A stretch of DNA of 64,000 nucleotides, from positions 29,866,331 through 29,930,330 of the forward strand of contig OZ316891.1 of NCBI GenBank assembly GCA_973895155.1, written 5' to 3'. Both the position numbers and the translations under genes were made by a program. The notes under the pieces are model-generated. The model worked only from the letters and a program-made list of their open reading frames with translations. It did not search any database and had not been told where the DNA came from. Below, piece by piece: positions 930-58,518 of the stretch (position 1 is its first letter; every line of letters starts with the position of its first letter). The stretch is from Marsupella aquatica (Eukaryota > Plantae > Marchantiophyta).

Positions 930-976
930 CTTGGAGGTTTAAGGGTGCGAACCTCTTTGAAGGCTCATGGAACACT

Positions 977-986
977 CCCCTAAAGC
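977..986. repeat. Left target-site duplication CCCCTAAAGC (partner at 12551-12560)
   Basis: Identical 10-mer (11 with the next G) lies just outside both ends; 9-11 bp TSDs are typical of MULEs. Confidence 0.75.
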
Positions 987-2883
987 GGGGGTATTTACAA
1001 ACGACAGGAACCAGGAAACAGCAAACAGTTACTGTTACCAGGAGAAATGGAAAAAAGAACATGGGATTGAGTTCCATTATTTGGTCAAGAAGTTAAAAAA
1101 ACACCATCAATAAACCCCATTTTCAGTTGTTTTCAATACCACCATCCAATTGTCAAGGAAAGTAGGGGCCATTAGAATAAAGGTGTTGCCGAAAACCGGT
1201 GATGGCCAGCGCACAACGCTAGTATGCCGGCAGGGAAGGGCAAAAATTTAGGTATTCATAAAATAACGAAAAAGATGGAGATTCTACGTAACGTCAATCG
1301 AGAAGAGAACAGTAAAGTTAATGACCATTAGAAAAAGGCGTTGCCAAAAATATGCGGATATTAGCAGCGCCCAGCGCTAGTATGCTGGAAGAGATTGTCC
1401 GTCACATCAATCGAGAAGTGAACACAGGAAACTCAATTTGAAGCATTTCCAACAAAGAGAGGCAATGGCAGACGTTGAATATTTTCAGCGATGGGCGCTA
1501 CATTAAATGTCGGACCTCAAGAAATCAACGTCTAAACACGGAATACAATGACCATAGGCAGCGCTCGGCGCTAGCTCAAATCTAGGAATCAATGAATGAC
1601 CATGAAAGAACAAGAGAGCCGATCCAAAAGTGCATTCCTTAATTCCAAAATTGGTCAAAACATATAACCGGTATTACACCATCCGCAGATCATCTTCAAA
1701 TCAACCCACGACATAACATGAACATAAGCAGCGCTCGGCGCTAGCTTAAATCTAGCTATCTTAAATGTAGCCCGCCCTGGCCCGTATGTGCTTTATCTCG
1801 ACCTGAGCCGCACATAACAGGGCCGCTGATCCAAAATGGGCCAAAGATGGAGCCGGAAATACATGAACTTAGAATCACCCATAGAAGAAATCCCACGGTC
1901 CAAGACGAACAAAAGCAGCGATCGATGCTAGCTTAAATGGAAACCCTATGGCCACTGAAGCTTGTGTCACTGAAACCATCTCCGTCGTGAATAACTTTAG
2001 CTCTGCGATTGGCAGTCGTCGTCGATGCCCGCCCTGGCACGTCTGGGGTTTTGCTTGAAACCTAGACCCCTGAGACGCACATAAGAAGACGAGGGGCGCC
2101 AAAACTCCGAACTCTGATTCCCGGGGTCTGGAACATTTGTATCTAGGAAGTCAACACGTCCCAGTCGCTCTTGTACTCGTAGCTCAATAGGCTAAATACC
2201 ATCAGCAGGAATGAGAGAATGAAACGAAAACCGATCAACAACTGCGAGCGGAGTGTCCCGGTCGTTAATCCAAGGTAAGTTCCTCTCCCCGGGACTAATC
2301 GCCTCATCATAAGGAAGAGAAAAATGATTCCGGAAGGTCGAGGTCTCGCTGGATGTGTCACCATGAATGGACTCGAAGGAGCTAAAGTGACTCTCGTCCG
2401 GTCGAACTCTGGAAGGAGCAAAGAAGGCAAGCATCTCCTCCACAGACATGATCTCCTTCTTCTCCATCTGGTGGGCACTGTTAAACGCAATCGAGGCTAA
2501 TGACAAGACCGGTGGTGTTGAAATGACTCGACTTCGAGAGAGGTTGTGTTTGAAATAACTTGCAAGAGTGACCCAATGGAGAGTTTAGGTTCGGAGATCA
2601 GCAAAAACGTATCACAGAAAGGTTCAACGCAAAAAGGACCGTTGAGAAAGAGACGACTGTTCCGGTAGCGACAAAATATGCGGGGCCAAGGAACGGACGG
2701 AGGATTCAAAATTCGCAATTAGACAAATAGATGTTTGGGGAGCGCCCGGCGCTAGTAAGGGAAATGAGGAATTTAATCCATTTTATTATCAATGTAATGT
2801 AAACAAATCATATCTAATATAATAAATAAATGGATTAAGATAACAGCGCCCGGCGCTGGTAAAATGTAAGCCGAAAACACTCT

Positions 2884-3237
2884 TTAAGAATTGGACGATT
2901 CCGATTCGGAGCTCTGTGACCTCTCGGTAGAGACCGCCTCATCATCTACATACTTGCTCCTACAAACGTCGTCCACATAAGGATTTCGGACAAATTTTCT
3001 ATCAACTCCTCTTCGTAGCCGGAGACCTTTGTTTTCCCAACAAAGAGTCCTCTGATTGTCTTCCATTCTTGCAGCATTCTCAGCGTAAAAGGGTAAAACA
3101 AATGGTTTCTCCGGAGTGACAATTTCAAAACGAGCTACCTTTCTTCTGAGTTTGAAGCGTCTTCTCGTATTCCATTCGGACCTGGGTGAGAACAGAAGTT
3201 CGTCAACCGATTGTATGAATGGATATCACAAAGGCAT
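2884..3237 (-). pseudogene. Possible small third cargo ORF or exon (~117 codons, one in-frame TGA), unknown function
   Basis: ATG CCT TTG TGA TAT... reads through into ORF 2884..3066 (MPL*YPFIQSVDELLFSPRSEWNTRRRFKLRRK...SESESSNS). No family recognised. Confidence 0.3.
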
Positions 3238-3280
3238 GAAGGAACTGGAAAGGAGAAAGAAGCTTACGAGTTTCAGAACA

Positions 3281-6200
3281 TTACTCGGAAGAGTCATCGC
3301 TGTCACTCTGGCCAGCGGATTGTTCCTGACCCTTCCCCTCAGGTGTGCCATCCTCATCTTCGTCTACTGTACCACCACTTGACTCATCGTCAGAGTCAAA
3401 ATTGAGTACAGAATGGAGCTTGTCCCTCTTTTTCTTTTCGGGTGGCTGAATTGGGGGTGGCAAAGTTTCAACTTCCTTTGGAGAAAGTAGATCTAAGAAC
3501 ACCTTGGAACCAGTCTCAACGAAATCTTTCCTATTCTCCACTCCAATTACAAACCTCCCAGAATAGTCTCCAGCTACAAAAGAGCTACCCAACCCCACTG
3601 TCCAATCCATGAAAATATCCCTAGGACGAGTGATGAGCTCAATCACAGATTGCATGAATCCAACCGACAAACGGGCATTTCCAGCAAATTCCATCTCAGG
3701 TGTTGGATCGACTTTGAGAGAGGGAAGTCCAATTAAATTTGTTATTGAGGGATCTTCTGTGGCAGACAGAGGTCTAAACCTCGAGTCTTTTGGCACCTTC
3801 CCTTTTTCAGACACTCGAGAGAAGACGTCCAGCCTCAGCGTGAAGATCTGTAATATAACCCAAGCAAGGTATGTCAATGGATGCATTTGTAGACAATTTT
3901 TTAACGGCAAACCAGATGTCACAATGAGAAATTTACCTGTCGATCAGTCTTCGGCGCGTACATTGGAACTGACATGACAACATTGTGTGACGAGATGCAA
4001 TGAAACTTCTTTGAATCTTGACAAGCCGATATAACCTGAGACATCGGATCGTATTCCCCGTTATGTAAAATGGCCAGCATTCCGTCATCAGATAAAAATG
4101 GATCCATTCCACGAAAGAAAGATGTGGCCAAAGTGTGGTCAGGGACATTCCATTTAGGAACTTTTCTGTCTAGAAGAGATGGTTTAAGTCCTGTTGGAAG
4201 GTAGATGAAACCCGCGTGGACCCCAAACGATCTCTCCTTTCCACCACGCACAATGCCCTTCTCTCGAAAGCCAGACTTCATGAGATCCTTTCCCCACTTC
4301 TCTACACCATTCACCCAGTCAGGCTTCTCCCCTTTGTTAAACGTTGAGTTGTAGAATTCTGAGATGCTAGATTCAACAAGGCAATGCCTTGAAAGTCTAC
4401 TCTTGAAGTCCCCGACTTTGCGTTGAAGACCTACAGCAGCAGCACTTTCTCGAGAAGAAGATCCACCTTCAATGGTCCTTTTTCTCTTCTTCCTTGTACT
4501 GGTCGCATCCACCGGCGCGATCGCCTTCCCTTTGTCGGCGGGAGTAATTGGATCGGATGGTGCTCCGGTATTGGCTTCTGAAGCCTCTGGGGTGGCATCT
4601 ATCTTTGTATCTCCGCTCCCCACGGCGTCCGACTTTCTCCCTGTTCAAATGGATGTCAACGTGATATCCGTCAATAAAGAGACAACGACAATGCTAACTC
4701 CCAGCACTGGCCAAACTATCATAAGACTTGGCCTTAAATATACATCTTTCCGAGTAATAAATACCAATTCAGTTTCTAAAACATTGACTCTCATAACAGC
4801 GCCTGGCGCTAACAGATTTGGACTCCCATAGCAGCGCCGGGCGCTAACAATGTGACAGATATTGACTGCCATAGCAGCGCCGAGCGCTAACCAAAGGAAA
4901 CAAATTATACTTACATTTTTTCCCAGATCTTGTTGATTCACTTGGGGCCGTAGTATCTGCTCTTGCTTTGGCGCGAGGCTTCCTGCTTTGGTCAACATGA
5001 ACAATTGTTGTCTCGCATATTGTTTGCAATTCTGTTGTGGATTGATCCACATCATCCGGAAGTCCCTGCTTCATGTCAGAAACAACGTTGACTGGGATCT
5101 GGGACTTAGACAGCTTATGGAAAGCATCCTTTTCTCTGTGATCAAAGGGCGAGTCCCATCTATCTGTATCCAGGTACCATGGACAATGGGTTCTCTCCCA
5201 TTCACTCAAAGGTCTTGCTGGGAAAATTCCCTCGGCAGGATACATAGAATACAATTCAACTAAAGAATTACTCTCCGGTATGACAGTCCACTTGAGGAAG
5301 GCGACGGGATACGCCCAGAAGTAATCAGGATTGGTAGCCTCCATGTGGATGTAAAAACGGTAGAGATACCGTTTTGCTCGCTTCTGGTTCTTCAAAGAGT
5401 AATCCTCTTTGTTAGAATACTTCAAGGGCCACATTGTATTAAAAAACTTACCCTTGACAGAGTCACCGTATTTCCTCAAATCATTCGTAACTATTTCAAT
5501 GAGAGATTCGAATGATTCACATGCCCAATCTTGTAAGCGATTCACGGGAATGGTTTGTTGGACCTCTCGTAGAGCACATTGCAACATCCCCACCGCAATC
5601 CCTTCTACATTATTCCATGTAATCCAAGTGTGACACCACTATTTTACTGGATCATCATTGACGCTATTCGGATGGAAGAATTGTCTCCGGAGCTCCGGAT
5701 TGCAATGTGCTACAAGCAAAGTACTTCGTAGCTTGGCGTCAAGAGCCGAAACAGCTGTAAAAAGCCTGGCCCGGTCCATGGTACACAACACGGTATCTGG
5801 CTTCTTCTCTCGCTTATTCCTCTCCGTGACAACATACATCTCTGCGCACGTAGATAGAAAGTCCTCAAACTCTGGACTCAACAAAGGAGTGATTTTTGAG
5901 GTCTTAACTGCCCATTCCTTGGTTGCTTCCTTCATCATAACGGCATGCCTTCTGGAAACCTCCTCGACCGACCAAGGGGTACCGAGGGCCGCAGCGGACT
6001 CCATGTCAATCTTGAACTGGTTCGAATACGACTTAATCTTATCCTGACATAGAATGTACAAAAGAGCCTCCTGAGGCATCTTCTTTGTGTACCAGGATCC
6101 TTTTCGCGTCTTCACCCTGATCTGCTCAAACTTCTTGTAATTTGCAGGGTCGATGAGCTTACTATAGTACTCCAGGTCGTGCATCAAGATCCGCTTAATT

Positions 6201-7121
6201 CGATCGGCATCTAGGATCCAGGAGGGTTCCACAACTGCTTGTCCTAGCCTGAAATAAAAGAACGAAATGAGAACATATAAGCAGCGCCGGGCGCTCGCAA
6301 AACATGGCCTCAGAAAGTTATGCTAGAAAGAATGAACAATTCATAACGACTCACGAAGTTATGCACAAAAGGGTATCTTACTGGTTAACGGTGTGCATAG
6401 CCGCTTCGATTTCTATCAGCGAACCCTTGTCGCCATTGAAAATAGTACAAAGCACACACGGGTGGTACTTTGGGTTTTCGAGACTCTCTTGAGTGACAAG
6501 AGTCCACGAGTAAAGCCTATGGTTCCCGTCAAAAGTTGAGAACATTCTGTCCTTCAAAACTAGAAAATCTGGGTCGGCAGCACATTCTTCCTCGAATTTC
6601 TCGTTCTCAGATGTCCATATTGGATCCTAACTCTCATGAATTTCTTGAGTACAGGTGAGAAGCGCTCCCTCAGCATCGGTAGGCTGAACGTAAAACCTCG
6701 TTCCAATCGAAGAATTGTATCCCATGCTACGGAAAGAGTCTTTTAGCTTGTCAATGGAAGAACTGTCTTTCTGTAGAGTTTGGACAACCTCCATATGCAC
6801 CAATCGACATAGTGGAATTCGTGGAGGCTCTTTGTCAAACCCTCTGAAATCCTTCCCAAACGACATGACATGTTTTGAAATAAGATCCATCTCGGAAAAT
6901 GAAACATCTTGAATCGCAAATGTGTCAAGATTCTCCATCTTCTTTCTCACTGGTTTGGCAAACAAAATACTTGAGATTGGAACAAGCGATGCGGTGGACC
7001 TCGTTACTCGACGCGTATACACTGAACCAGAGAATGAAGACTCAGAAGACTCGCAATACCCACGATCCTGATCCCCAACCACACTATACCCCCTCGACGA
7101 GGAGGGGATTGCATCCATCAT
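3281..7121 (-). pseudogene. Transposon cargo gene: ParB/Srx-like N-terminal domain plus C-terminal beta-class N4C/N6A DNA methyltransferase-like domain; ~1114 codons, two premature stops
   Basis: Exons 7121-6382, 6248-4915, 4640-3937 and 3847-3281 joined by GT-AG introns give 3345 nt in one frame. In-frame TAG at 6627-6629 and 5639-5641. FSTFDGNHR lies at 6516-6542. IELITRPRDIFMDWTVGLGSSFVAGDYSGRFVIGVE resembles motif X-I of beta-class amino-MTases. Confidence 0.75.
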
Positions 7122-8042
7122 CTTTACGATGAAAGGTGTACGAACGGAATCCTCACGACTAATTACCAGTTCTCCGTACCATTAACAGTTGCGTCCGTAT
7201 TATATCCGATCAATGAGCGCTATTCCCCTCTTTGTAATCGGTTGGAGAGACGTTACTCATTGCGAACGACAAGATTCAATTTAATTTATCAGTGACGGAA
7301 AGCGACAATTTAGAAATTGCGATAAGTATTAATGTGAACTACCCTAAAATGTTTGCGTGATCATCACGCTGAACATTAGTTACCGTTAAATGTTTCCGTT
7401 GTCTCAACACCTTGCAGACAAACATGCAATGCCAGCACCGGGCGCTAACAAATAAGAGACTACCAAATTGAAGAACTTATAGGTGAACAAATGCTAGCGC
7501 CCGGCGCTAGCCATTTGAATAATTTCATTAACGTTCTTTTTAAGTAACAGATATTGTCAACAAACTCCTAAATGTACCTCTTTCACCTGTAGTAACCAAA
7601 ATTTACTTGATATTATGAGATTAAGTATATTGTATCAATACTAGCGCCTGGCGCTAGTAACAATTTACTGTATTTGCATCAATATTTCGTGTGTAATTAT
7701 GCTAGCGCCAGGCGCTAGTCAGAAGACTTTTCAAATTATGTCATTGTTATTCCAATGGCTTTTAGGTAGCGCCTGGCGCTAATGAAATGGACGCACTTGT
7801 ATAGACTACTATCTAGTCGTATTCATGTAATAAATATTCCTGACACCCGCACTTGACGGGCAAAAACGACAAATGTATCATTTATGATTTCAACGGACGC
7901 AAAGTTGTGCGTGTTCTATGTCGTATTGAAACGTCTCTTTCAACAGCCGGTGGTCCTTGAAGGGGTGTTATAAGCACAAGAAATATGGTTGGGATTGGGC
8001 TATTGCATGAATTACTTCTGGCCTAAACTTCTTTCGTCTACA
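7122..8042. promoter_or_regulatory. Divergent promoter region between cargo gene and transposase, with five palindromic motifs
   Basis: AT-rich spacer between head-to-head ATGs. (T)AGCGCCNGGCGCTA copies at ~7433, 7494, 7641, 7701 and 7768. Confidence 0.6.
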
Positions 8043-11000
8043 ATGTCGCGCTCAATTGTTATTACACGTGCTTGTACCCGGGAAGTCGTCAAAGTTCCCG
8101 TGCAGGTTTCTGATACTTATAGGCAAGTAAGCGAGAACTACCTGTGCGAGAGATTCGATTTGAGAATCAATGACATTCTGTCGATTGTTCCTGAGGAGTC
8201 ATCGAGTGGAGGACTTGAACCAGCTGCGGCATTTGATGTGGATGACGGAATACATTTCTGGCACATGAATGTAGGACTTTGTTACACGCTTCATGTCAGA
8301 CCTACTCCTCTTCAATCGGTTGTTCAGGACATTCCGCCCCAGGTTGTTGAAATATCTGAGAGTGAAGATGAGGAAGTTGCGCCCAATCCTCCTGAGAAGC
8401 ACAAAGCTCCAAGCTCTAGTTGCCTTAAGAGTGAACCGGTGGCCACTTCCGGAGATGTCCAGAAGGTTTACCAGCGGAGTGCAATGGACACCTTACTCAA
8501 GGCCACGGGCCATAGTGAACTGTCAAGATTTATCTCGGCAGGGGACTTTCGACACGATCAAGTTCCTTGTTTGCCAAACAAGTACAACGGAAATATTGTA
8601 TTTGAATTGCCTCCCATTGTGGGAATGCAGTCCAAAGGATCTAGACTTCGTGACATGGACCGTGCCAAAGATTGTTACATTTGGACCAGGATTTTTCCGA
8701 CGACCGCAAACGTGCAACCAAAAAAACACTGGGAGTTTGGTAAAGTCAGTTGTACTGGGTTCGTCGAGTGCAGGAACAAGTCCTGTGAATATTTTTTGCG
8801 AAAGAAGAGATGCAATTTGAAAGCGTGGGCTGGTACCCCTAAGCTTAGTGGCCAGCATGTGGTGGGTTCGTTCATTGAAGAGGGTGGTATAGTATGTCAC
8901 TACTGTGAAAAGATTCCTTTTTGTGTGGACTCTTGCCCTGCTCGCTTGTTCTATATGTATCCACAGGTACTACTTGATACGGAAACCTGTAGTCACATGT
9001 CTCGACTCGCAGTCCATATAGGTGAACATAACCATCCGAGTAGAAAAGTTTTCTCCAGGAGTGCTGAAAAGATGGCCGAGGACTTAATAAAAAGAAATCA
9101 CAAAGCCAATCCTCTTGCAAAACCGGCTGGGATTTTGAATTCGGCGACTAGTTCGCTTGTGAAAGCTCTTTGCGAGAACATTGACGACATCGTAGATATT
9201 GAAGAAACCAAAATTTGGAAGTCTCTCATGGTTCTATCTACTCCTCAGAAATTTGCGTCCCTTTGTCGCAGCGTTCGAATGGACCAGGCTGGTCGTGGTG
9301 AGTTAGATTTCCTAGCTCAAATGCAAAGGTCAAATAATATTTCTTTTCTCCAAAGGTATCTTCTTCCGGGTCAGGGTTGTTTAGCAGATCGTCCCCACAT
9401 ATTCAAAATGTCAGTCAAGGGTCATGGATCTGGTGTAGATCTTTTACGTCAGATGCAACCTGGCGGAAGACTGGAAGGGGCTTGGGTGAGTTTTGATGTC
9501 ATGAAGCGAGTGACAACCGACTGGTTTACTTTTAGCGCACACGTTTACGATCACAACTTTCAAGCTCTTTGTACAATATTCACATGCGAACTAAAAGCTG
9601 AAGACACAGAGTCCTTTGAGAAGGCATGGAGAATTATGATAGAGGTTTGTAAGGAAAATGGGTTACATGAGGTTACCATTCAAGGTTTTATGGCCGACAA
9701 TGCTCAGGCTGGATGGATTGCCGTTCGCAATGTCTTTTTTGGGGGTCACCCAGACCCTGAACGTGAACGCTCCAATGCATTCCACTTTTACCAGTCTTTC
9801 CATCGACATTCCACGGAGGGAGTACTCGAGGGTAGGCAACCTGAACATCTAAGACTGTGGGAGAAATTGCGAAATGCTCCATCATTCGTTGCGGCGTACC
9901 GAGTTTCTAGGGAGATTGTGTTATGGTGGCAAGCAGGCAATTGTGTTCCAGGAAAACTGATGATGTTGCAGAGTTGGATATCATGGTGGGTCGTTCGATG
10001 GCGTCAGTGGGGGAATTTCATTCGCGTGGTAAGTTTTATCAATGCTTACAATAGTCACTTCGCCATGTTTTTTACTAGCGCCTGGCGCTGCTTTTAACTG
10101 TACAGATGCCAACATTATATTATTACATCATACACAATGCTAGCGCCTAGCGCTACTTTAAAATGTACAGAGAACTTTGCCACATTCATGACTTATGAAC
10201 ACTTGATAATACCAACATTACATTAATGTATATTATATACATTGCTAGCGCCTGGTGCTGCTTAAACAAATTGACTAAAGTTGGTCTGGATCCACTTCAT
10301 TGCAGAGCAAAAGCGCAGAAGAAGGTGCCCTCATTCCAAACTGTACAGCATCTGAGTCAAGGCACGCTTCAATGAAAGCATGGGCAACCAAAAAAATGGT
10401 GGGCCTCTTCGAAGCATGCGAAGTTGATCAAAATCGGGCTATATCTCAAGTTGCGGGTTACAGTGCATATCGGAAAGGACTCAATAGAGGGAAGGGGCCA
10501 ACTATCTGGGAATTGGCATTCCGTTCGGCAGACCAAGCAGGTTCACCCAAGTTATTCGAAGAAGCCACTAACATGATTCTTTCCAACTCTGCCGATTTTG
10601 ATCTGGGTAGGAATTCTCCTCTGAATGGAGATATTGTCACCAAATCGGTTAAGAGGAAGGGACTTGCAACTGGGATTGTCTCGCCACAAGACTCCCATCG
10701 GCATGACACCATTCTCATCACTACCCCAAATACTCGAGGATTCAAACGGAAGAATCTCAACAAGACTGAGTTCACTTCCATTCCCGCCAATGTAGTAGAT
10801 CCTGTAGTAGACCTCTGCGGGAGTGACACTTCAACAAGTGAAAGCGATTCCCTTGCGAACACCCCTGAAGCCACGAGGGAAACAACATCATCTCAACAAC
10901 CACGCAGTGCCCCCGCTGTGGTTCAACGTTTGCCGACAGAATCAGCTCCATTGGAAATGGACGTTCCAAGAGGAAGCTGGCATTTGAGACGGACGGCCAA

Positions 11001-11832
11001 ATATGGGGCAAGGCCACAGTGTAATAGGACCTTGTATGGAAATTCTGACAGAGATGAGTGTCGAAATCGTGTCAAGAAAATAGGGTTCCATTCTGCTGCC
11101 GGTGTTGTCGGCATTGTTGTTAGCGGACATCGCATTTTCAGAGGAACTCCCATTGCCGAAATGATATGGTTCTGCCCAAACAGCACATGCTACAAGAGCC
11201 GCCCGCGTCGCGGTGTTGAACGCCTTCCTCCTGTGCCGGACATCCTGCCAGTTGTGAAAGGAACAAACCTCTCGCCTGGCGAGATAGAGTACCTTCAAGC
11301 GCAGGGAGTCTCTATGGTCCAAACAGCTGCGACCTCTCGAACTCGAACTGCACCATTTGCATTCGACTTGAGAATCAATGTTAACACATTTCCAGAGAAA
11401 ATCAATTTTGCGGAGCCCAACGTGCGCCTTCGTAGCAGGAATGGGAGGAACTCCAGACCTCGCTCTAATCTAACTGTGGCTCACAGTAAACGAATGGAGT
11501 CGGCTCGAAAAGAAACTATGACTCTGGATGGAGAGTGGGATGTGATTAGTGGAATTGCTTTTGGGAAACAATTCAGAATACGGACTCACGAGAACCTTCG
11601 ATCGCCAAACACTTACTTTGTCCAAATGTGCATCTTCCCTACTTGTTCCTGTGAGGATTTCTTCCGTCGTCATTCCCGCGGCAAGCTGTATATGCCCTGT
11701 AAACATTTGTACAGGGTGTTCATAAATGTCTTCAAGTTTCATGTAGAGGAGTCTACCCTGTGTAGCCAGCCGATTTTGACAGTTGGAGAAGTCAGACTTG
11801 TGTTGGAGAGGCACAACGCAAATGGTTTATAG
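8043..11832 (+). CDS. MULE-family DDE transposase with N-terminal GCM/WRKY-like zinc finger and C-terminal SWIM finger, ~1170 aa, two exons
   Basis: Exon 1 8043-10028, intron GTAAGT..TTGCAG 10029-10305, exon 2 10306-11832, in frame with no stops. Motifs: CTGFVECRNKSC..CHYC..CPAR..HIGEHNHP; D1 VSFDVMK (9495), D2 FMADNAQA (9696), xxFH, E in ASESRH (10354); SWIM CSCEDF..CKH. Start codon inferred. Confidence 0.85.
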
Positions 11833-12867
11833 AGGGACTCGATTTATCCTTAACTGTCGTATTCCATAACGGATACTATGTTGTTTTGTCTTTAGTCAAC
11901 GGATATTACTTTAGTTTTTTATGTGGTTTTGGTTAGCGTCGGGCGCTGGTCAATAACTTATTTATAAAATTTTGTTTTCTCTGGTTAGTGCCATTGGATG
12001 GTTCCATAAGCTTTTATTATCGTCCCATTATTCTGCGTACTTAATCCTTTGTTAGCGCCTGGCGCTAGTTTCACACTCTGCCTGACAGACCCCTATGTTT
12101 CCGATAACATAATTCAGTCTACAACTGGCTTTGTGGTGGGTCCCGCCTGAGCATACTCCATCCCTCCATGGGTATTATGGTTAGCCTTTTTTTTAACCAC
12201 ACTAATGAAGTATATGAACTAAATGAAGCATTTAAAAGTGGACTGTTTAGAAATGTTGCTGTATATAAACAGCAGTGAATTGAATGACAACCCTTTTTTA
12301 TCTATAATCTGAGCAAGTGACAATGGATTGGAACCTCTCCGAGCAACTGTGAGCACACTTTTCCCTTATATCTGACGTCGTGTCTTATGCCAGTAGGAAT
12401 GTTTTTAGCTTAAGTATGTGGTTGTTCCTTACGTGAATTTTTGAAAAACTTTGCCAAATAGTACACCTTTACAATAACAATTTCCTGTTACTAGGAGATT
12501 ACCTGGTAACAGGAAAACTGTTTCCTGTCTCCACTGCTATACCCCCTAACCCCCTAAAGCGACGCTGTCATCTGCTGGAGATGTGTTTCGATCGAGAACT
12601 TCATCGAGCGTTCGATCTTTCTCTCGATCCCGTCCGAAAACTTGACACACCTTTTTAGTCGCAGCGAGCAATGTGCGATTCGAAGGGAACACATACAGTG
12701 GATGAGAATCACGATTCTTGAAAGCAGGGGAAGTACGTATGACTCACTCGTAAATTGAATCACCTTTGTTTGAACAGACCTCAACATTTTATCGTCTACC
12801 TGCACTAGATATAGCCTCGGAAATCTAGTACTGTTGCACTCATCGACACAATCGAACTCAATCGTGT

Positions 12868-24824: not shown

Positions 24825-27800
24825 CTAAATATGTAAAGAGGACATTTCCAATGTAGCTTGGGAAGTGTGCGCGGTAAAATCATTTAGCTTAGATGCTGAT
24901 GATGGGTCGGAAGATACTGCTAACGCTTGTAACATGTTCAACACATTTGACGGATCATCTAGATAATACTTTGCCTTGCTGGGTTTCTCCCCCACAGTGC
25001 AAGCAATCACTTCGGCCAATGGGGATTGTGGAGGCTCTGACATCGCGGTTTCAATACTTTCAAACATATCCTCATCTGACCTATCATCTCCAATACACAG
25101 AACGAAATCAGGTGGTGAACCCTGCTCTGCCATGAGTGATAACAGTCGCTCTCCAATGACTCCTTTGCTGACACCCTGTGTAAAAAACCATAGGGCCATT
25201 GAAATTAGTACCAAAGAATATATCTATACAAAACGGTTTCGCATCGCGCAATAAACTTTGGGGACGAACAAAAAACGACGGGAAGCCAGATGTAAATGAA
25301 AACTTCAATCAAGTTTTCACAATACCTGCGGTTTAACTTCTACAATATGGTGGCCACTCTTCACAGCCACCGGCTCATTTGCGAGAACACTTTCTAAATG
25401 ATCCAGGAGCTCTTTGGCCTGCCAAGATCCGAAGTCCGGGTCTGCATCTTGATAGTGCCAGACAATAGCACTTTCTTTCTCTTCTATGTTCGACCCATCT
25501 GTTGCCTCTCTGTACAACTTCAACACAGGGAGAGCAACGTCTTTCCACTCAAAACCTGGAACATTTACTGACGTCGTCCAATCATCTTCTTTTCTCCACC
25601 TGCATTGCATTGCAAGGCCGGGTTAGCAAGTCAGGACGATTGAAAATTTAGCAGTCGTAATCAAAAAGCTGCAACCATGCCGCAGGTCCCAAAATGAAAT
25701 CTTTTCACGGTAGCATAACATTGCATGAACAGAAAGATTGAACACAAAATACGTTCATTACTTCCGTTTTACTTGTGCTTCGGCAACAGAGACGGTGCGG
25801 TTATAGACAGACCCACAATTTCCTTTTATTTTCATGTTTGGATCACTTTCAAAACAAGTCCTTCCGTCTTCACTGCATTGCAGAAAATATTTCTCATGGT
25901 TTGAATTCCCTAGTTCCCATATCTTCAAGTTGCCGATCAAGCTTAGGGCTGGGCTGCTGGGCCGCTTCCAATCCCACCAGGCTACACTGCCGAAGAGTAG
26001 ATTTCATTCTCTACGACTGGAGAAGTACCGGAGGCTTCTATCCGCAATCACATCTTCTTGAGGAAGGCTCTTGATAACACCATTACACCTAAAGCTCCAT
26101 CAAATCCATCAAATTACACAACTAAATGTGACCTAAAGCCCAGTTCGATATGACAAATTGACGCTATCTCACTCAGTGACTCTAGTTTGTACTATACTCC
26201 GATTTTTAATCTTGACATTCCTTCTAAATTTCACTTTAGCCTACGCGAGAAGACCGGTGAATTATCCAGAATGGGAATCTAGACAGCTAATGGTCTGCAT
26301 TGCATCGCATTGACAGGTTGGACCAAACCGTGCATACCTGTAATAGAAGCCATGCTCTGCTGCAATCCCCAAACGGTCGCACGATTCAAACCAGTCAGAG
26401 AGAGGCGCCCGCCCTCGTCCACTAACGATGAAAACAACATTCTTTTCGTCGCTACAGATCGTGTTCAAAAGCTCCAAAACAGACGCACCGGGCTTCTTGT
26501 TGAGGGAGGTCTGGGGCATCATGGTGCCGTCATAATCCAGCAGAATGAGTCTCTTCTTACTCTTCTGGTACGCGGCAACTACGAAGTCCGTTTGCAGCTT
26601 CCGGAAATTGGGGTCTAGAGCCACCACCTTGAAACTCAGGCCGAATCCAATGCCATACGACGCCCGCCGTTGGTGCTCTCTGCAGGTGCGTTCCAAATCC
26701 CCCATAAAACTCTGAGCCCAGTAGGCGACGTCATGTGTGCTGACATACTTGAAGTGCTTCTCATGCCGCATTTGCTTCTCGGTATTGGGCAGCGTGATGG
26801 CCGTGTTTAGCGCATCTGCCATGGCCTCGATATTCCAAGGATTGACCCGAATAGCTCCACTCAGAGATGGTGAACAGCCAATGAACTCCGAGACAATCAG
26901 TGTACTATTACGTCCAGCACCACTCTCAGCACTACCTGATACGGAGTAAAGAGGAGGAGATGACCCCACCTGGGGCATTTGGGGCTCAGCCTCCAAAGAA
27001 GTAATACCCTCCCGGCAAACAATGTACTCATAGGGGATGAGATTCATCCCGTCTCGGACTGGTGTGACCACACAGCAGTCAGCTATGGCGTAATAGGCAA
27101 TCCTCTCATACAGAGGTACACTCCTCTCCAGGAGCACCACCGGTTGGTACCCTTCCCAGCCAAACTCCCTGTTAATTCTCCGGGCAATAGTGCTGGCCTC
27201 GTTCTGAATTTCCTGCACCTCCTTGCCTTGGCCTCTCGCCGGGTTGACGATTTGGATAAGCACCACCCTGCCCCTTCTCTCGTCATGCTGCCGTAGCAGC
27301 TGCTCCATGGCCAGTAGCTTGAGCCCAATGCCTTTGAAAATATCCATGTCGTCCACTCCCAGGAGGATGGTTCTCCCACCATATTCGGCCTTGAGCTCCC
27401 CAGCCCTCCACCCGGTTTCCTTGCTATTGAGCCTGGAGGTCAGCTGGCCCATGTGGACACCCACAGGCATGATCTTGATGCCCACGGTCCTCCCGTAGTA
27501 CTCCAATCCCATGTACCCTCGCTTGGATTCATAGACGAGGCCCAGCATTCGGCTACAGCATGACAAAAAATGTCTGGCGTAGTCAAATGTATGGAAGCCA
27601 ACGAGATCGGCATTCAGCAGGGCTCGGAGGATTTCGTCCCGCACTGGTAGAGTACGGTAAATTTCCGAAGATGGGAAGGGGCTGTGGAGAAAGAAGCCCA
27701 GCTTAATTTTGTTGAACCGCCTTCGGAGCATTGTGGGGAGGACGAGGAGATGGTAATCATGGATCCAGACGAAATCGTCCTCTGAGGCAATGACCTCGAG

Positions 27801-28466
27801 CACTTTCTCACCGAATACCCGGTTAGCCGAGACATAAGCCTGCCAGAAGGTGCGGTTGAAGCGACCTCCGTGATTCGGAGTGAGGGGAAGCATGTAGTGG
27901 AAGAGCGGCCACAATTGCTGCTTGCAGAAGCCGTTGTAGAAATCTGCTGTTAATCTGGCCGACAAGAATGCCGGCACGCAGTTGAACTTCTCCAGGAGAG
28001 TGGCAGCCACTTCGTCCTGCTCGCTCAAGTCTACCTCCACCTTCAAAGTCCCGATGTAGATTACCTCCATGTCATCCGCCAGCCCAGACTTGAGCTGGAG
28101 AAGGAGTGAGTCTTCATCAAAGGTGAAGCTCCAGGCGGTGTCTTCAGCGTTGCGCTGTGCATTCACCGGGAGCCTGTGTGCCACTATGATTACACGCTCG
28201 TAGCCGAGATGAGACGAGGGAGCCTCGGAAGTCACGCTACTGCTCTTCTCATCACTGATGGTATCTCCTTTGCCGTCTGATAGAATACCAGGTACTGTGT
28301 TCACCCTGGGAAGCTTGCCGGTGCGCCCAATGCGAACTCCTCCTCCTCCAGTTCCACCACCTACTCCTTTTTCTCCTACTCCTCCTCGTCTTCCTGTTCC
28401 CAGAGAACCCATATCCCCCGGTCCCATGGAAAGATCCAAGAGATTGGCATACGATCTTGACACCAT
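24825..28466 (-). CDS. TPS: Class II trehalose-6-phosphate synthase/phosphatase (TPS5-11-like), 917 aa, three exons
   Basis: Exons 28466-26338, 25599-25326 and 25175-24825 total 2754 nt. Motifs MVSRSYANLLDL, WIHDYHL, GFFLHSPFPSSEIYRTLP, RDGMNL, LDYDGTM, EVKPQGVSKG, GDDRSDEDMF. The two-intron layout is typical of class II TPS. Confidence 0.95.
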
Positions 28467-29776
28467 CCCTTCTCCACCTCCCTGATTTCCTGCTCGCCGA
28501 CCACCAAAACCTCACTCGCTGCCCCTGCCACCTCGTCTGCTAATAAATTGAGCTTAGGATTCAAGCTGATTTGCAACATTGATCGGGTAATTCTTCCTCA
28601 TTAATTTGCCCCTCGTCTGCTAACGTCTCCTGCCTAATTTTGGCCTTCGTCTAACTATGGTGTTTTATGAAACACTATCCACCATCAGGGATACTGCTGC
28701 TGCTGCTGCTACAACTGCTTCCTCCTGACCATCCTGTCGACATGAAGAACAAATCGAATAGCAGCTGTGATACTCAAATCTTCAAATTCCTTGCCCCGCC
28801 TCACAATAGCCTGCTGTGAGGACGAAACGCTAGGCTCGGAAACGGAAGGAACGTCACCAATTCAACTGCCATCCAAAAGTATCTGAGAACTGCTGCTGTC
28901 GCTGCTGCTGGGATTGGCACTTTCCAACCCCTCCCGCCCCCTCCCTTAAAACCAACCCGAAAAAACTCTGCGTGTCTCAATGGCAAACCTCCCAGGGGTG
29001 GACTTTGCGTGCACGCCCACTGTCGGAACTACCACACTCTGATTTCCTTCTTCGGCTGGCTCCTTTGCCTCGCTTTGGTTTCCTGGCTGGCTGCCTCGAC
29101 CTGGCTTTCGCTTGCACTGAAGCCGGGAGACAAAGTGGATATTGTTATTCAAAGCGAAACGGTTCCTTTCCATCAAACTTGCTCTCCATCTTTGCTCTCT
29201 ATCAACACTGGCCCTCTGCCGCCCACAAAAGTCGTTTCAATCTATGCTTACATCTGCTAGAAAGCAACGTACCTTCCAGCACAGAGACGAGCAAAATCCA
29301 CGAGGAACGGGACAGCTCAGCGGAAACAGGAGGGCCGAAGTCGATCCACGGAAGCAGATCAGAAATCACTCACAATTCTCCTTTACATTTGCTCCTCTGT
29401 GACATTAATGCCGCTCACCGGCAGTAAACACGGTCATCGCTTGTCCAAAATCCTGTCAAACCAGGCCACGGATTTCAAGCAGTACTTGTGCACCACCACC
29501 ACCACCGCCACCGCCGCCGCCGCTCACTTAACACGCTCGATCAAAAACCCAGCTGGGAAACGGAGAGTGCGTAAAAAGAATGAAGAAAGCCAACCGTCCT
29601 GAGTGCAACAAGACCAGACCAGGCTTCGTTTAGTTCGGTCCGGTTTGGTTTGTTAGGAGGCAAACACAAAGAAGACGAGAAGAAGAATGTCAGTCGCCGC
29701 AAGTGGCAGCCGTTTCCTTCACAGAAAGAATGGAGGATGATCACTCCTTCCTCTCCAGCGCGATGAGGAGGCCACG

Positions 29777-30802: not shown

Positions 30803-32134
30803 TGGCCGCAGCATTGCAATCACTAATCAATTCCCAATTCCAGCTTGACAAACGGACAGCCCTGCTGCCCAAGCCCAGCCCACCCCTCCCTGCCCTGACC
30901 TGACCGGCTGACCTGACCTGGAGGCTACAGAGCAGTAATTATTTTCGTTCCGGTAAATTACACAACACACCAAAATATTATCTTTAAAAATAGTGTACAG
31001 ACGGAAGGCTTACATCAAAAATGCTTAGAATAGTCTGTAAACTTTACAAAGTCCGGTGTGACAACTCTGAAATATTTGGTGTCCAATATTTTAATGGTGG
31101 TTTATTTTTTACGCGAGCGGGGATGACACTAGGGTGTACCGTGATGGTACTTGTGATAGATCTGTCAACCTGCTATTGAAGGCGAAGTGAACATCACTCA
31201 GCCGGATCACTATCCGGGTACGAGTGGGGGCACGGGCAGGGGGAAAACACTATCCGGGTAGCAGTTTGGGCAGAGGGGAAAACGAAGTCATCATTACTAA
31301 CGGGCAGTGGAGAGGTGTGACAAACACTCCAGCTTACTCTCCCAAGTGAGTAGATCCGGGCAGGACGGGCACGGTCGAGGCGGGCGGAGGTACGAATGCG
31401 GCCCTACGGTACGGTTGCGTAGATCCGGGCAGCGTTATATCCCAAACTCCTCGCGGTAAATCTCTCCTGGGGCAGGATGGAAAAAACATGCTGCCAAGTG
31501 GAGCGATGGTAAGAACGCCTGTAATGTAGATCCCGGCAGCGAGTGATAATTATCACGACACCCCGCTAGTGTGATACCAGAAGTGTCCGCGCGTAAGAAA
31601 GTGACCCAGGCAGGTGACAAAAACCTTTCTTGGCAGAGGGGTAAAAAGACACTATCACGGTGCCAGGATCAGGGCAGCTGGGCAGGGCAGGGCAGGCAGG
31701 GTAGGGCAGGTTGGGCACGCGGTCAAAGAACATGGCCAGAAGGGACAGGCACAGTACAGACAGTGTCGTTTCGTGTAAAACATCGTTGTCGTGGATATAA
31801 AATCTTATTTTCAGAAAAGGGATAGAAATTGTTTTTTTTCCTGCCCAAGTACTGTAAATTGACTTTTATTTGTTTTGGCCCCTTGTTTCGGGATAAGAGC
31901 GATTCGTTGGCAAACGACTTGATAAGGCTGGTGAACGGAAGAATCCCAAACTGTCAAAGAGTTGAAACGCCGCCTCAGCTGAACTGAACTGCTGCCCGAC
32001 AGATCGCCAAGTTGCCGAGAAGGGCAGGGCGGGGCATCACGGAGAATATTCTGGTATTATTTCATGGGTGCAGGTACGCAAGAAATTTTTTGACTTTTCC
32101 TTTTCTAGAAAACTTAAGGTTTGATAATTGGTCA

Positions 32135-33605
32135 TGATGCCAGGATGGATGTGTGGAACCTAGATGGATACTACTGGAATATCCGAATTTACCCGTATAG
32201 CATGTGTTACGCTTCACAGACATGAACACAAGCATTGCAGGGATGCCAGGATGGATGTGTGGAACCTAGATGGATATTACTGAAATATCAAAATTTACCC
32301 ATATAGCATGTATTACACTTCACAGACATGGACACAATTAATTCAATGATGCCCGGATGGACATGTGAAACCCTGATGGACACAAATGAAGTATCAAAAC
32401 TTACTTGCATGGCATGTGTTACACGTCATGGACACAAACTTGTGGTGATGCCCCAATGTAAATGTGAGATCCTAATGGACAAATGAAATATCAAATTTTA
32501 CTTGCACCATATGTATTACACTTCATGGAAAAAAGCATTTAGGGTGATGCCTTGAAAGCCTGATGGACACAGACGAAATATCAAAATTTTACTCACATGG
32601 CATGTGTTACACTTATGGACACAAACATTTGTGTGATGCCCTGATGGACATTGGAAACCCTGATGGACACAAACTAATGAAACATGAAAATTTATTTGCG
32701 TGGCCAGTGTTACACTTCATGTACACAAGCATTTGATTGGAACCCAGATGGACATGTGGAACCCTTATGCACATAAATGAAATATCAAAATCTACTCTCA
32801 TAGCATGCGTTACACTTCATAGACAAAAACTTTTGTGATGATGCCCCAATGTACATGTGAAACCCCAATGGAAAAATAAAATGTCAAAATTTACTTGCAG
32901 GGCATGTGTTACACTTCTTGAAAATAAACATTAGGGATGATGCCCGAATGACATGTGAAAGCCTTATGGAAATGGCTAAAATATCAAAATTTATTTGCAT
33001 GGCATGTGATACACTTCATGGACACAAATGACGTATCAAAATTTACTGGCATGGCATGTGTTACACTTCACATACACAAGCTTTGCTGATGCTCAGATGC
33101 AAATGTGGACCCTGATGACACAAATGAAATATCAAATTTTACTCGCATGGCATGTGTTACACATCATGGACACCAACATTTGTGGTGATGCCCATATAGA
33201 CATGTGAAACCCTGATGGACACAGATGAAATATCAAATTTTCACTCGCAGGACATGTTACACTTTATAGACAGAAACGTTTGTGGTCATGCCCAAATGGA
33301 CATGTGAAAGCCTGGTAGACACAAATAAATTATCCAAAAAAAAATTGCATGGCATGTGTTACACTTCACATATACAAACTTTTGCCGTGATTGCCCACAT
33401 GGACATGTGGCACACTTGTGGACAAAAATAAAATATCAAATTTTACTTGCTTCGCATGTGTTGCACTTTATGGACACAAACATTTGTGGTAATACCCAGA
33501 TATATAGACATGTGAAACCCTGATAGACACGTACAAAATATCAAATTTTACTTGCATGGCATGTCTTTTGCATCATGGACACAAAATTTTGTGGTGTTGC
33601 CCTGA
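32135..33605. repeat. Degenerate tandem array, ~15 units of ~100 bp
   Basis: Recurring GATGCC..GGACATGTGAAACCCTGATGGACACAAATGAAATATCAAAATTTACT.GCATGGCATGTGTTACACTTCATGGACACAAACATTTGTGGT at ~100-bp spacing. Confidence 0.9.
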
Positions 33606-35158
33606 ATTACATAGATGTCGTACTCAAAAACCTCTTCCTCCCCAATCCTCCAGTTGTAGGGTTGTTGTAGGTCAGAACATTGGATATGCCTTCAGCATTA
33701 ACAAACCTATAAGCCATTGAGGAGGATTTTAAAGCATTTATTTAGGCTGTGATATTTTTCTATGACTTTCTAGATTTCTCATATATATGACATCGGCCAG
33801 CCTAATTAACCTGTTTGTTATATAAAAAATGTTTATAAATTCTTTCCAATACAGTGTATGTACAACAAATACATTCAATGCAAAATCCCAGGTGGCTTAA
33901 GATGTTTGTGTGCCGGTAAGGGAAGATTCAGCCACTATTGCAAAGCATTGAGACTTAGTTCTATGATGACGATTTGCGGGCAAGAGGCCGGCCACTGGTG
34001 AATTGCCCATTTCAGCAGCATTTTGTGGAAGCTTTTGGTTTGGTTGTTGAGCTTGTTGTATGTTGATTAAGGTAACTAAGATTGAACAAAATAATTAAAT
34101 TCCAGCTTTTCAAGCTAGGCAACTCTTTCAACATATGGATGAACACATGGAGTATCATTGTCATTGTATGCATTAAGAGTATCCATTTGCAATAACTATT
34201 CATGGATGCAATAAGTTGTGGCCTGATTAAACACTATGGTGAAACATCAAAGTTAATGATCATATTGTAAGAAACCATCGGCTTAGACTAGACAACAAAT
34301 GCAAAACATGAGAGCACTCAATCTCACATTACATTGACAAGACACTACAATGGAAAAACTCCTTAAGGATCCATAGCTCATGAGAACATACATGTGAAGA
34401 ATGAGGGAGAGAATGTTTTCTCTCCAACCTATACCCCCAGGGGTGCCAAAATGTGCGGGCCTAATCTAAGCGGATTTTATTGTAATGTAATCAAAGGGTT
34501 AACTAGCTACCCTAGTGAGTCCAAACTAACTAAAGCTGGGAACTTGAGTCAATTCCTAACAATCTCCACTTTGACTCTAGTTCACACAATGAGTCTAGTG
34601 ATATACAATATGTAAAGTTGTACATAACATATCCACATAGTCTCCGGTTTGGCCCAAGTCTTTCATTGAAAACTCTCTGTAGGGCAACATCTGTATTCCC
34701 ATCCAAGATTAGCATGTCATCCACTATTTAGAGGGTAGTGTAAAAACCCCTAAAACACGTGAGAACAACCAATAAAAATTTTAAAATTAATTTTAATTAA
34801 AAAACCCTTGTACCCTTTATTATACTACTTTGACAAATTTTTAGATATCTTGCTGAAAGTCTTTAGAAATAAGGTTTTGATTATAATTATTAGTCCGGCA
34901 TGATTAAAATTAACTTTCATTTGTTCAAAACCCATTCTAATAATCCAACGAGCAATTTCTCACGGGATGAGAGAACAAAGAGTAAATTGAGAATTCTAAA
35001 TGGAGTGAAATTTTACAGGTAGCTGGGAAATTTTCATTCAAAACAAATAGGAGACTTACATTCATGATCATACCAAGGGTAATTCTCTACGCAAAACATT
35101 TTCATTAATACCTATGTCTATACAATACAATACATGTAACACTACACATAGTTTAAGC

Positions 35159-36129: not shown

Positions 36130-38740
36130 CAAACAAAAAAAAATTGTGAATACTTGTTTATTAGCGAAGCCACCGCGGTGAAGACCAGCGCGGCAGAAAA
36201 CAACCACACCGAGGGCCTCACACACCCCAAACTGAGACAACATGCCAAAAGCCACCCCAACAGTTCACAAGGTCACCTCCTAAAGAAGGACCAAGGGGGG
36301 AGAAAGCAAAAAAACTAAGCAACTCAACAGGGAAACAATGCACCGGCCGCAAGCAAATGGGGGCCCCAATACTGGAATGAATAGAGCTCCAACAGCAAGT
36401 ACCCAAGCTATGCGTGACTAGTGCCAATAGAAGCCCTAGCAGTCAATTTAGTGAGTTCAAGAAGGGTCTGATGTAACCTTTTGGCCTTCTGCACACTGTG
36501 AGTCCGCTGGAGGGTACCATGAACTTGAACAGCAGCATTGTTGAGAATGATGTGCAAAGGAAACCTGGTAGAGGTAGCATGATACGTGCGTTGCTGTTGC
36601 TCAACCCAGATGGTGCTAAGCATCTCGTGAATGAGGATCAGGAAGCCAGGGTTGCGCTTTTGGGACCTTATAGCAGTGTCAATCTTGCCAAAGGAGCAAC
36701 CAACAGCCTTGTTTAGACTGGTGCCAATAGCAATGATTTCAAGATGAGACCAACGGGGCCGCAACCTAGCCAGGACAATCATAGAACAAGTGTTCAATGG
36801 TCTCCGTGTGTCCTTGGCAGGGGGTGCAATGGCCATTGCTCACCGTCCATTTCAAAGCACGCAAATTGGAGAAAAACCTTGCATGGAGTACCTTCCAAAA
36901 CACGAGTTTAACAATAGGAGAGGTCCAACCTTTCCAAAGATGAGTCCACCGGCTCCTCCAGAGTTCTTGTGTGTCAAGAGAGAACCACCTATGATTGAGT
37001 TGGACCATGGGGGTAAGTTGTTGTTGCACCATTGTCGCCCACATCCGAGCCCACATCTTGGTAGGAAGGTGCCACCTTCTCTTCACACCAGTGGGCCATT
37101 TCCAAACCCACCCCTCAGATGTGAGGAGTCTCCCCATTGTTGGCCTCTTGGAGGTGTTCAAAAGACCAAGGATTTGTGGAAGAAGTCAAGTAGCGCTATG
37201 TCTGGTCAATTGAAGCGAACCTTGGACCTGTTCTAGAGTTTTCCAGCCATGACCAGGTGTGGAGAGGTTGTCCACAGTGCAAGCCACAGTGAAGACCTTG
37301 CTGGTGGCAAGAAAACTCATACCAACCCGCATCTCGGTGTCTGTGACAGTCAGCTGTTGATCCATAAGGATGAGAAATTGTGCAATTGATAGGGAACGAG
37401 GAATTTTCCCAGCAACTGTGCTAAAGTGGAGATGACAATAGGAGAGCTCCCAACCCCTAAGCAGACAGTTGAGGGTAGGTGCACACGCTACCTTCAAGCT
37501 AGGGGAGAGAAGGAGAAGATCAGTAGGGTCCCAGAATTTCCTCTCCTTACGATGAGGCCCTGTCCCTGCTGTGAGTGTGATCAATGACCTAGCCATGTTC
37601 ACCCAGGCAGTGTCAAAGCCAGTGAGGAGCTTAGTGATACTCCTCATCTTACACACGCGGGACTGAATCTCATAAGATCTGATGGTTAATCCCCCATCTG
37701 CATATGGTCTAGTAGTAGTGTCCCAAGCAACCAAAGCTTTTTTGGGAGCACCTTCTGAAGTGTGGCCCCAGAAGAAGATGCGACAAACCCGTTCTAATTG
37801 CTGGTACCTTGTCTTTTGGGTATTGAGAAGCATAAGATGATAGACAGGAATTGCCAGAAGGACATGCTTCAGTATGACCAACCTGCCAGCTTGAGTGAGG
37901 GTCCTATTGGTCCAATGCCGCAATCGCTTCCTGACTTTGCCCAAAAGAAACTTGACCTCTTGGCTAGGCTTGATGTGCGTGCCAATAGGACAACCCCAGT
38001 AGATGATGACCTCCCCCTTAACAGCAATACGGCACCTAGTGTGTTGAAACCAATCAGATTGGGCTGAATTGTCAAGCTGTATGATAACCAATTTGTCAAT
38101 GTTAAGAAGAGCACCAGAGACTCTCTCATAGGTATGCATAGCGTTGCATGCAATAACAAATTCCTCTTCGGTGGCTTTGAGAAAAAGACCAGTGTCATCA
38201 GCAAAGAGTTGATAGAACAACTTGCTGCCATCTCCAGTGTTGAGCCCCATCAATTCTCCAGCTGTCAATTCTCGGGGGTTTCACTTCCACAAAAATGACA
38301 TATCACATGCGACGAAGGATAGGGTCATTTTATTGGTTCTAAGGGAAGACTTAAGAATTTTTGTAGAAGACCAATAGGGTCTTTTAAATTCAATTTGAGA
38401 CTTATAAGAACATTAGGTTCTTATTAATCCAATTTTTAGAATATTCCAAAAATATTCCAACTTTATAGGGGTTAAAAAATAAAATAAAATTCTTACATTT
38501 TAGGGGGTCCGAGGCCTAAACACGTCGCAGGCGATGGGGAGGTCCCCATATAGTGAGACCCCCGAGTGTCAATTTAGCTTCAAGTAGACACATCAAGGGC
38601 TGAGTGGCTAGTGCAAATAGCAGCGGGGCAGTTGGGCACCCCTGCCTAACCACACGCTCCAATAAGATCTCTTTAGTAAAGCCTCCATTGACATGGACCT
38701 TGGAAATAGCATCAAGAACCAGACCTTGGATCTAGATTTT
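36130..38740 (-). mobile_element. 5'-truncated, degenerate L1-like LINE (RT C-terminal part plus zf-RVT), interrupted by a MITE
   Basis: RQGCPTAPLLF (~38610-38650), QLFADDT, YERVSGALLN, AIPVYHL, FFWG, GGL, then WKVLH..C..CQGHTETIEHLFYDC; contains stops and frame changes. The 3' boundary is approximate. Confidence 0.85.
38271..38566. mobile_element. 296-bp MITE with 15-bp TIRs and 8-bp TSD
   Basis: CTCGGGGGTTTCACT ... AGTGAGACCCCCGAG (14/15 inverted match), flanked by TGTCAATT at 38263-38270 and 38567-38574. Removing it restores the LINE frame (EAKLTAG). Confidence 0.9.
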
Positions 38741-58300: not shown

Positions 58301-58518
58301 TGCTGCTTTCGTGGTACACGGCTGTACAGCTCTTGTGCGAAGCTGTCCGTATCTCTGGAATCGGGGAGATAGCTGTGAAGCTCGGTGATGAGCTGCTTCG
58401 TTGACGATGCCTTCTTGGCCAGACCTAGCACGAAGGAAATGACTGGTGGCAGCGAGTAACCCAACAAGGCATGCAACTGGTCTGATACCCATGCTCTCAT
58501 CTCCTTATCCTCCGCCAT
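55336..58518 (-). CDS. DHX16: Pre-mRNA splicing factor DEAH-box RNA helicase (Prp2/DHX16/ESP3-like), 1060 aa, single exon
   Basis: N-terminal [14 protein letters not shown]-like region; [47 protein letters not shown], then HA2/OB-fold C-terminus. ATG taken at 58518 (MAEDKEM). Confidence 0.95.

Follow-up and report, generated by a model that had tools for sequence, protein, structure and literature searches.

What is a prokaryote-type DNA methyltransferase domain that lacks its catalytic motif doing in the genome of a liverwort? The question is raised by a 64,000-nt stretch of Marsupella aquatica DNA (assembly GCA_973895155.1, contig OZ316891.1, positions 29,866,331 to 29,930,330 of the forward strand; hereafter the window), in which an earlier note had described a beta-class N4-cytosine/N6-adenine methyltransferase-like domain. 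We found that this domain belongs to a longer gene, here called gene A. Gene A is one of the ParB-like accessory genes of transposons, of which algal cases have been published; this one comes from a land plant and is apparently non-catalytic. Its ParB-like domain, its two in-frame TAG stops and its location inside a transposon go beyond the earlier note.

Gene A lies on the minus strand in four exons (7121-6382, 6248-4915, 4640-3937 and 3847-3281) which join in frame to give 1,114 codons; splicing was deduced from the sequence, and all three introns have GT-AG borders. Exon 1, with a start codon likewise deduced, carries a ParB/Srx-like domain (IPLCRL...LKDSFRSMGY...FDGNHR), and exon 2 encodes a helical middle region. 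Exon 3 encodes a low-complexity linker and then the putative catalytic half, with the tetrapeptide YLPT (4203-4192) and a motif VI-like LSDDG; exon 4 encodes the S-adenosylmethionine (SAM)-binding half, with the motif I-like MDWTVGLGSS and the motif II-like IGVE, followed by an acidic tail. The peptides of exons 3 and 4 stand on the minus strand exactly where the earlier note had read them. In this copy two in-frame TAG codons occur, codon 165 in exon 1 (6627-6629) and codon 450 in exon 2 (5639-5641); because of these two stops this copy of gene A is broken, and it is likely dead.

The sequence of exon 4 clearly points to a derivation from the beta-class amino-methyltransferases. All three PDB matches at E<=10 were beta-class methyltransferases: DpnA (5hek, E=8.3e-4), a second DpnA (1.1e-3) and CcrM (E=0.12). 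The search against PF01555 that had been suggested for the domain gave a match for exon 4 alone, to positions 164-218 of the Pfam model, with E=0.0025 and 18.2 bits, under the gathering cut-off of 26.7, and no match for exon 3. Among the PHROG methylase families the best match had E=6.6e-4, and in the ESM Atlas exon 4 scored 0.93, with 27 of 30 matches in the PF01555-only set. The SAM half lies C-terminal of the putative catalytic half, as in the beta-class enzymes.

A beta-class profile was built from 27 non-redundant sequences; they were drawn from 66 distinct open reading frames (ORFs), which came from 137 loci of bacteria and phages. Motif I of gene A reads DWTVGLGS, with the aspartate and both glycines kept and PF replaced; PF occupies positions 2-3 in 16 of the 17 motif I types of this set, which had been chosen with a motif I pattern. 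Motif II (IGVE) keeps GxE.

The class assignment, firm for the SAM half, proved weak for the catalytic half. With the 27-sequence profile HMMER matched the gene model in the exon 4 part only, and exon 3 alone gave no relevant match in Pfam, PHROG or PDB. When the two halves were joined, HHalign aligned 171 columns at a probability of 79%, placing LSDDG on motif VI and DPPY on the peptide VPKW. The motif VI block was best placed on FL(S/A)DDG, with a score reached by 8 of 1000 shuffles for P0151, a contig ORF related to exon 3, and by 63 of 1000 for the window sequence; the placements of the strand block and of the motif IV block were not significant in the shuffle test. LSDDG and LADDG occur verbatim in two long members of the 27-sequence set (about 680-700 aa). 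In the ESM Atlas exon 3 ranked a cluster with 48% PF01555 third (score 0.75), which we take as a lead only. Foldseek with a model of the exon 3 half gave no match at E<=0.001, and CcrM stood at rank 19 of 25 (E=8.5). Sequence comparison weakly suggests that this half, too, came from a beta-class amino-methyltransferase.

Which peptide occupies motif IV may be judged from spacing. From YLPT to LSDDG, taken as LxxxG, there are 36 residues, the commonest spacing in the set (4 of 15 measurable sequences; the other 12 of the 27 had no pattern match), and from VPKW there are 22, shorter than in 14 of the 15. On this ground YLPT is tentatively preferred to VPKW. The spacing that the earlier note had judged to fit agrees with the YLPT distance, and the HHalign placement of DPPY on VPKW speaks for the other register. 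In either register motif IV appears non-canonical, as had been claimed: no [DNSH]PP[YFW] occurs in any register in the whole gene A protein or in P0151.

The loss of the motif is shared with the relative. The limits of P0151 nearly coincide with those of exon 3, which fits the exon bounds, and it is 65% identical over the part searched; it keeps FVYLPTG, with YLPT at the presumed motif IV position and neither DPPY nor SPPY. Within exon 3, conservation is highest in the methyltransferase half (71/100 identical residues, against 46/80 in the linker). Variants were taken from the contigs of four runs (two studies, two organism labels) over positions 4120-4300, where 40 of 57 differences were listed. 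Thirty-one of the 40 were synonymous and 32 fell at third positions, against an expected synonymous share of 25-29%; counting every one of the 17 unlisted differences as non-synonymous still leaves an excess (P<=6e-5). In the YLPT codons four of five listed variants were synonymous, the fifth being a minor T>I. One of the 40 listed variants was another stop. These data indicate that the gene A family is under purifying selection in the YLPT region. Since YLPT is kept in P0151 and the variants are biased towards synonymous changes, the loss of the motif appears to be a trait of the family and not a result of decay, and the suggestion of a pseudo-enzyme gains support from both. For exon 4 no relative was found among 203 longer-protein candidates.

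At the other end of the protein, two relatives were found for exon 1, namely P0156 (77% identity) and P0157 of Riccia sorocarpa (42%). DGNHR is kept in all three sequences, and both relatives have tryptophan at the position of the first stop of gene A. Compared by HHalign with a profile of 35 ParB-N sequences, exon 1 scored 24.7; the shuffled sequences scored 11.3 +/- 2.0 with a maximum of 17.2, and none of the 120 reached its score. The GNHR of exon 1 fits the pattern GxxR, the P-motif of ParB folds (bioRxiv 10.1101/2025.10.10.680097). The part of exon 2 upstream of its stop is 29% identical to P0157. An AlphaFold2 (AF2) model of P0157 reached confidence in a single helical stretch, at about residues 281-400, and both fold searches with it returned generic helical matches, none of them clear; its ParB part had a predicted local distance difference test score (pLDDT) under 50, leaving the ParB fold unconfirmed. 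The Pfam matches to TRAPP, CDH1_2_SANT_HL1, AadA_C and Anthrax_toxA were all under the cut-off and were treated as chance, and Pfam gave no match that would tie gene A to any accessory family known from plants.

Gene A is contained in an element of 11,563 bp (988-12550, no strand assigned), recognised by contig depth and by its ends, which is repeated in the genome and flanked by a target-site duplication. Summed contig depth, which marks a repeat family and is not a copy number, was hundreds to tens of thousands in the bins from 935 to 12609 and 18-308 in the flanks in all four runs, with 2,193-5,015 contig records of a wide identity range placed on the window per run. The 11-mer CCCCTAAAGCG stands on the plus strand at 977-987 and again at 12551-12561, and these are its only two occurrences in the 64 kb, one at each end of the element. 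It contains CCCTAAA, which we take to be the plant telomere unit. Its length lies within the 8-11 bp of target-site duplications of Mutator-like elements (MULEs; PMC6446971).

MULEs have long terminal inverted repeats or, in the non-TIR families, none; at the ends of this element there are only short imperfect inverted blocks (GGGGTAT..., then blocks of ACAGGAA and TGTTACCAGG), the right end being 4-5 bases longer. At that end (12546-12561) an additional CCCCCTAA-like block makes the ends asymmetric by these 4-5 bases. The subterminal units ACAGGAA and TGTTACCAGG recur inverted near both ends (1003-1050 and 12480-12535) and may be sites for the transposase, separate from the palindrome described below. 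The ratio of observed to expected CpG dinucleotides was 1.02 and 1.32 in non-coding parts of the element, against 0.44 and 0.56 in the flanks; the palindromes contribute to this uncontrolled figure, and it was not used as evidence.

Head-to-head with gene A, on the plus strand, lies the transposase gene, gene B (8043-11832), recognised by its relatives and motifs, with two deduced exons (8043-10028 and about 10306-11832). The product has a Cys/His-rich region, the motifs FDVMKR, FMADNA and FHF, and a C-terminal SWIM-like finger (E=0.55, below the Pfam cut-off). An exhaustive HMMER search yielded 422 relatives at E<=0.001; of 16 looked up, 12 were named, all from liverworts (11 from Riccia sorocarpa, one from Calypogeia fissa). 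One transposase-related match, P0105, also has E+ and DYW deaminase domains and is possibly a chimeric gene call. A Pfam scan of gene B gave no MULE family match. DDE transposases of the MULE type carry a CxxH motif; in gene B two Asp motifs and the CxxH histidine are shared with its relatives, and the Cys position is Asn in gene B, Asp or Asn in seven and Cys in seven of the 14 relatives that matched the pattern (17 checked). The third acidic residue was not located in gene B. The element is probably Mutator-like.

The non-coding DNA of the element contains a 13-nt palindrome, AGCGCYNRGCGCT. It was found 20 times in the window, every copy within the element (1366-12066, no strand assigned), against 0.11 expected, for a pattern derived from the element itself; none of 100 shuffles reached 20. 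None of 19 sites tested falls in a coding stretch, though coding sequence makes up 67% of the element, and the twentieth site, at 1487, is likewise outside. The sites occupy the first two introns of gene A, the transposase intron, the region between the genes and the subterminal DNA near both ends. Thirteen of the 20 have a CCNGG core. The other seven deviate from it, in most cases through a C>T or G>A substitution, a kind of change which the pattern permitted and which was not controlled for; they are as expected if the sites are occasionally methylated to 5-methylcytosine (5mC).

Which known systems does this arrangement resemble? The nearest by description, the only level at which the two were compared, is the Sola1-1_Ec32 element of the brown alga Ectocarpus, which has a 1,104-aa gene for a ParB-like and N4-cytosine/N6-adenine methylase protein opposite its transposase (PMC12477816). 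Both genes encode about 1,100 residues (1,104 and 1,114) with a ParB-like part and an amino-methyltransferase part, and both lie in a large DNA transposon; gene A differs in belonging to a land plant and to a Mutator-like instead of a Sola element; motif IV is absent from it, and its element has a defined palindrome. The same authors cite similar proteins of green and red algae. Plavaka and Mutator elements of red algae carry ParB and methylase accessory genes, and inverted-repeat arrays adjoin the ParB genes of the Plavaka families (bioRxiv 10.1101/2025.02.11.637652). The red-algal PAG2 and PAG3 share with gene A a ParB-like part, a DNA-modifying fold, inverted-repeat units and a proposed self-binding and self-modification. 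In the red-algal PAGs, however, ParB with a 2-oxoglutarate oxygenase and N6-adenine methylase with SET are separate genes, whereas gene A joins ParB and methylase in one protein, and the red-algal repeats are tandem arrays whereas the palindromes described here are dispersed.

The VANC proteins of Arabidopsis VANDAL elements are likewise products of MULE accessory genes that go with a short non-coding motif, and their target motifs concentrate in introns, intergenic and terminal DNA (PMC5735166). The VANC motifs are 8-9 nt long, non-palindromic and same-oriented, in contrast with the 13-nt palindrome. According to the red-algal study, no transposon system other than VANDAL/VANC is known that binds its own sequence and modifies it (bioRxiv 10.1101/2025.02.11.637652). 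Among eukaryotic enzymes, MpDN4MT1a/b of Marchantia and the rotifer N4CMT share the permuted prokaryotic-type beta-class amino-methyltransferase domain; they are host enzymes with SPPY (TSPPY in Marchantia DN4MT1) and with activity shown (PMC8885841; bioRxiv 10.1101/2021.02.12.428880), while gene A is transposon-borne, fused to ParB and without the motif. In the literature searched, which did not cover Iyer et al. 2011, cited for green algae, no ParB-methylase transposon gene of a land plant or without the motif was found.

By analogy with these systems, the intact gene A protein may be a non-catalytic self-recognition factor, which would bind the palindromes of its own element and shield the element from silencing by the host. 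We hold this reading tentatively, at somewhat under even chances. It is suggested by the layout of the palindromes, which is that of the VANC motifs (introns, intergenic and terminal DNA), and by an architecture, length and orientation that are the same as those of the Sola1-1_Ec32 gene. The ParB-like signal of exon 1 and the inverted-repeat arrays that adjoin ParB genes in red-algal Plavaka elements also speak for it. The ParB-like protein, likely a dimer, would bind two-fold palindrome sites; the methylase fold without its motif would be a non-catalytic scaffold that contacts DNA or binds SAM; and the bound protein would keep the element active against host silencing, as VANC does. Methyl transfer has probably been lost, because it requires a polar first and an aromatic last residue of motif IV (PMC4738411) and because the change of SPPY to APPA abolishes the activity of the rotifer N4CMT (PMC8885841). 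That the palindromes are bound by a dimer of the gene A protein at the two-fold site, and not by the transposase, has about even chances. Anti-silencing as the outcome is possible and rather doubtful, and use of a nucleotide by the ParB-like domain to load or spread is somewhat unlikely. Quite unlikely is a further form of the proposal, in which a ParB-fold clamp would load in a nucleotide-dependent manner at the AGCGCCNGGCGCT palindromes and slide along the 11.6 kb of the element; cytosines would be flipped or covered by the rebuilt methylase fold, and host 5mC would thereby be blocked. If true, a bacterial-style sliding clamp would carry out anti-silencing in a eukaryote without depending on VANC, and liverwort-type Mutator elements would have borrowed a ParB/parS-like system.

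Several results weigh against the self-recognition proposal and the domain assignments behind it. The HHalign probability for ParB-N is 18%, with the first half alone aligning, and searches of exon 1 in Pfam, PHROGs and PDB gave no ParB match; nor was a helix-turn-helix located in the gene A protein. The Riccia P0157 ends before the methyltransferase part, so that the whole fusion is seen in this copy only. Exon 3 is covered by one diverged relative and exon 4 by none, and the contig variants are not independent events. The HHalign score of exon 3 by itself was attained by 97 of 150 shuffles, the AF2 model of the exon 3 half has a mean pLDDT of 40, and two stops interrupt this copy.

Three other explanations were weighed. 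The palindromes could be bound by the transposase, through its Cys/His-rich region, with gene A serving as a structural or regulatory cofactor of transposition, like MudrB, and having no direct part in anti-silencing. A transposase would be expected to have its sites at the ends of an element, but here the outermost 370 bp or so on each side are free of matches to the palindrome pattern, and the majority of the sites are internal. The palindromes do flank and interrupt both genes, the transposase intron included. mudrB is described as apparently needed for integration (PMC6446971), and a 2026 preprint reports that AtMu1 transposase suffices by itself for sequence-specific activation of cognate copies (10.64898/2026.08.24.746577). 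The inverted-repeat arrays of the red-algal elements, however, track the ParB genes (bioRxiv 10.1101/2025.02.11.637652), and we consider this explanation rather unlikely. Gene A could instead encode an active amino-methyltransferase with a rebuilt site, which would write N4-methylcytosine or N6-methyladenine at or near the palindromes, for example within their CCNGG cores, thereby blocking 5mC of the host. The conserved residues of motifs I (D and GxG) and II (GxE) and the good conservation of the methyltransferase half of exon 3 would agree with such an enzyme, as would the CCNGG cores, given that bacterial relatives of the rotifer N4CMT recognise CCSGG (PMC8885841), and self-modification of the element is what the algal papers propose (PMC12477816; bioRxiv 10.1101/2025.02.11.637652). 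The absence of [DNSH]PP[YFW] in any register, the polar and aromatic residues that the mechanism needs there (PMC4738411) and the replacement of PF in motif I make it very improbable.

Lastly, exon 4 alone could be methylase-derived and exon 3 of another fold, or the whole domain could be a functionless, decaying remnant. Exon 3 by itself fails in the HHalign, Pfam, PHROG, PDB and fold searches, and the two stops of this copy together with the listed variant stop would suit a remnant. Against this explanation stand the strong synonymous bias across the YLPT region, the fit of the motif VI block and of the spacing, the low-confidence AF2 helices that fall where helices D and E would be expected and the ESM Atlas results, which point both halves to the same family. 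This is the least probable of the explanations, and the self-recognition reading is the one we prefer.

Where did the methylase fold come from? Prokaryotic ancestry is likely and a horizontal origin plausible; of the acquisition that the earlier note had considered possible this much stands, and the phage, bacterial and prokaryote searches identified neither a donor nor a recent transfer. Exon 4 gave weak matches in 29 phage records (best E=0.01). Its matches in bacteria were weak as well: of 401 genomes from a single phylum, 21 had one, with 27-40% identity along short segments. Across relatives about 55-75 methyltransferase residues can be aligned. No relative was found in metagenome contigs, nor by pattern in prokaryote genomes; no sensitive search for distant relatives was made with the methyltransferase part. 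Fusions of ParB_N and N6_N4_Mtase in phages and bacteria (bioRxiv 10.1101/2025.10.10.680097) have the same domains in the same order as gene A, and the GxxR box (GNHR); unlike gene A, the six in our set are 422-596 aa long and all have DPPY. Direct capture of such a fusion from a phage is not supported, the six ranking 17th to 57th of 64 loci compared with the gene A domain, in a ranking whose top is biased towards loci picked with exon 4.

Other features of the window were recorded. Inside the element, on the minus strand, lie two short ORFs, C (2884-3237, in-frame TGA at 3226-3228), a possible third gene, and D (1997-2467, in-frame TAG at 2192-2194), a possible further gene or exon. A Pfam scan of ORF C was without match, and ORF D matched DUF5030 under the cut-off (E=7.5e-4). 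Together (1997-3237), with one in-frame stop each, they are possibly a third accessory gene. Outside the element, also on the minus strand, a single long ORF (26262-28511) is presumably a trehalose-6-phosphate synthase, and a 1,060-aa product of 55336-58668, a reading frame that appears intronless, is taken to be a DEAH-box splicing helicase. At 36408-38280, minus strand, stands what we assume to be a broken reverse transcriptase like that of long interspersed nuclear elements, with a zinc-finger tail. Two tandem arrays, listed with positions 41952-43073 and 32130-33615, were noted, one with a unit of about 225 bp (93-96% identity), the other diverged, with units of roughly 100 bp.

For the ParB-plus-modifier genes of algal type, the element offers a land-plant case with both a candidate protein and a cis motif that is sharply defined. 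It also suggests that selection went on maintaining the methylase fold in the plant branch once the catalytic motif had been lost, which would revise the published proposal of self-methylation.

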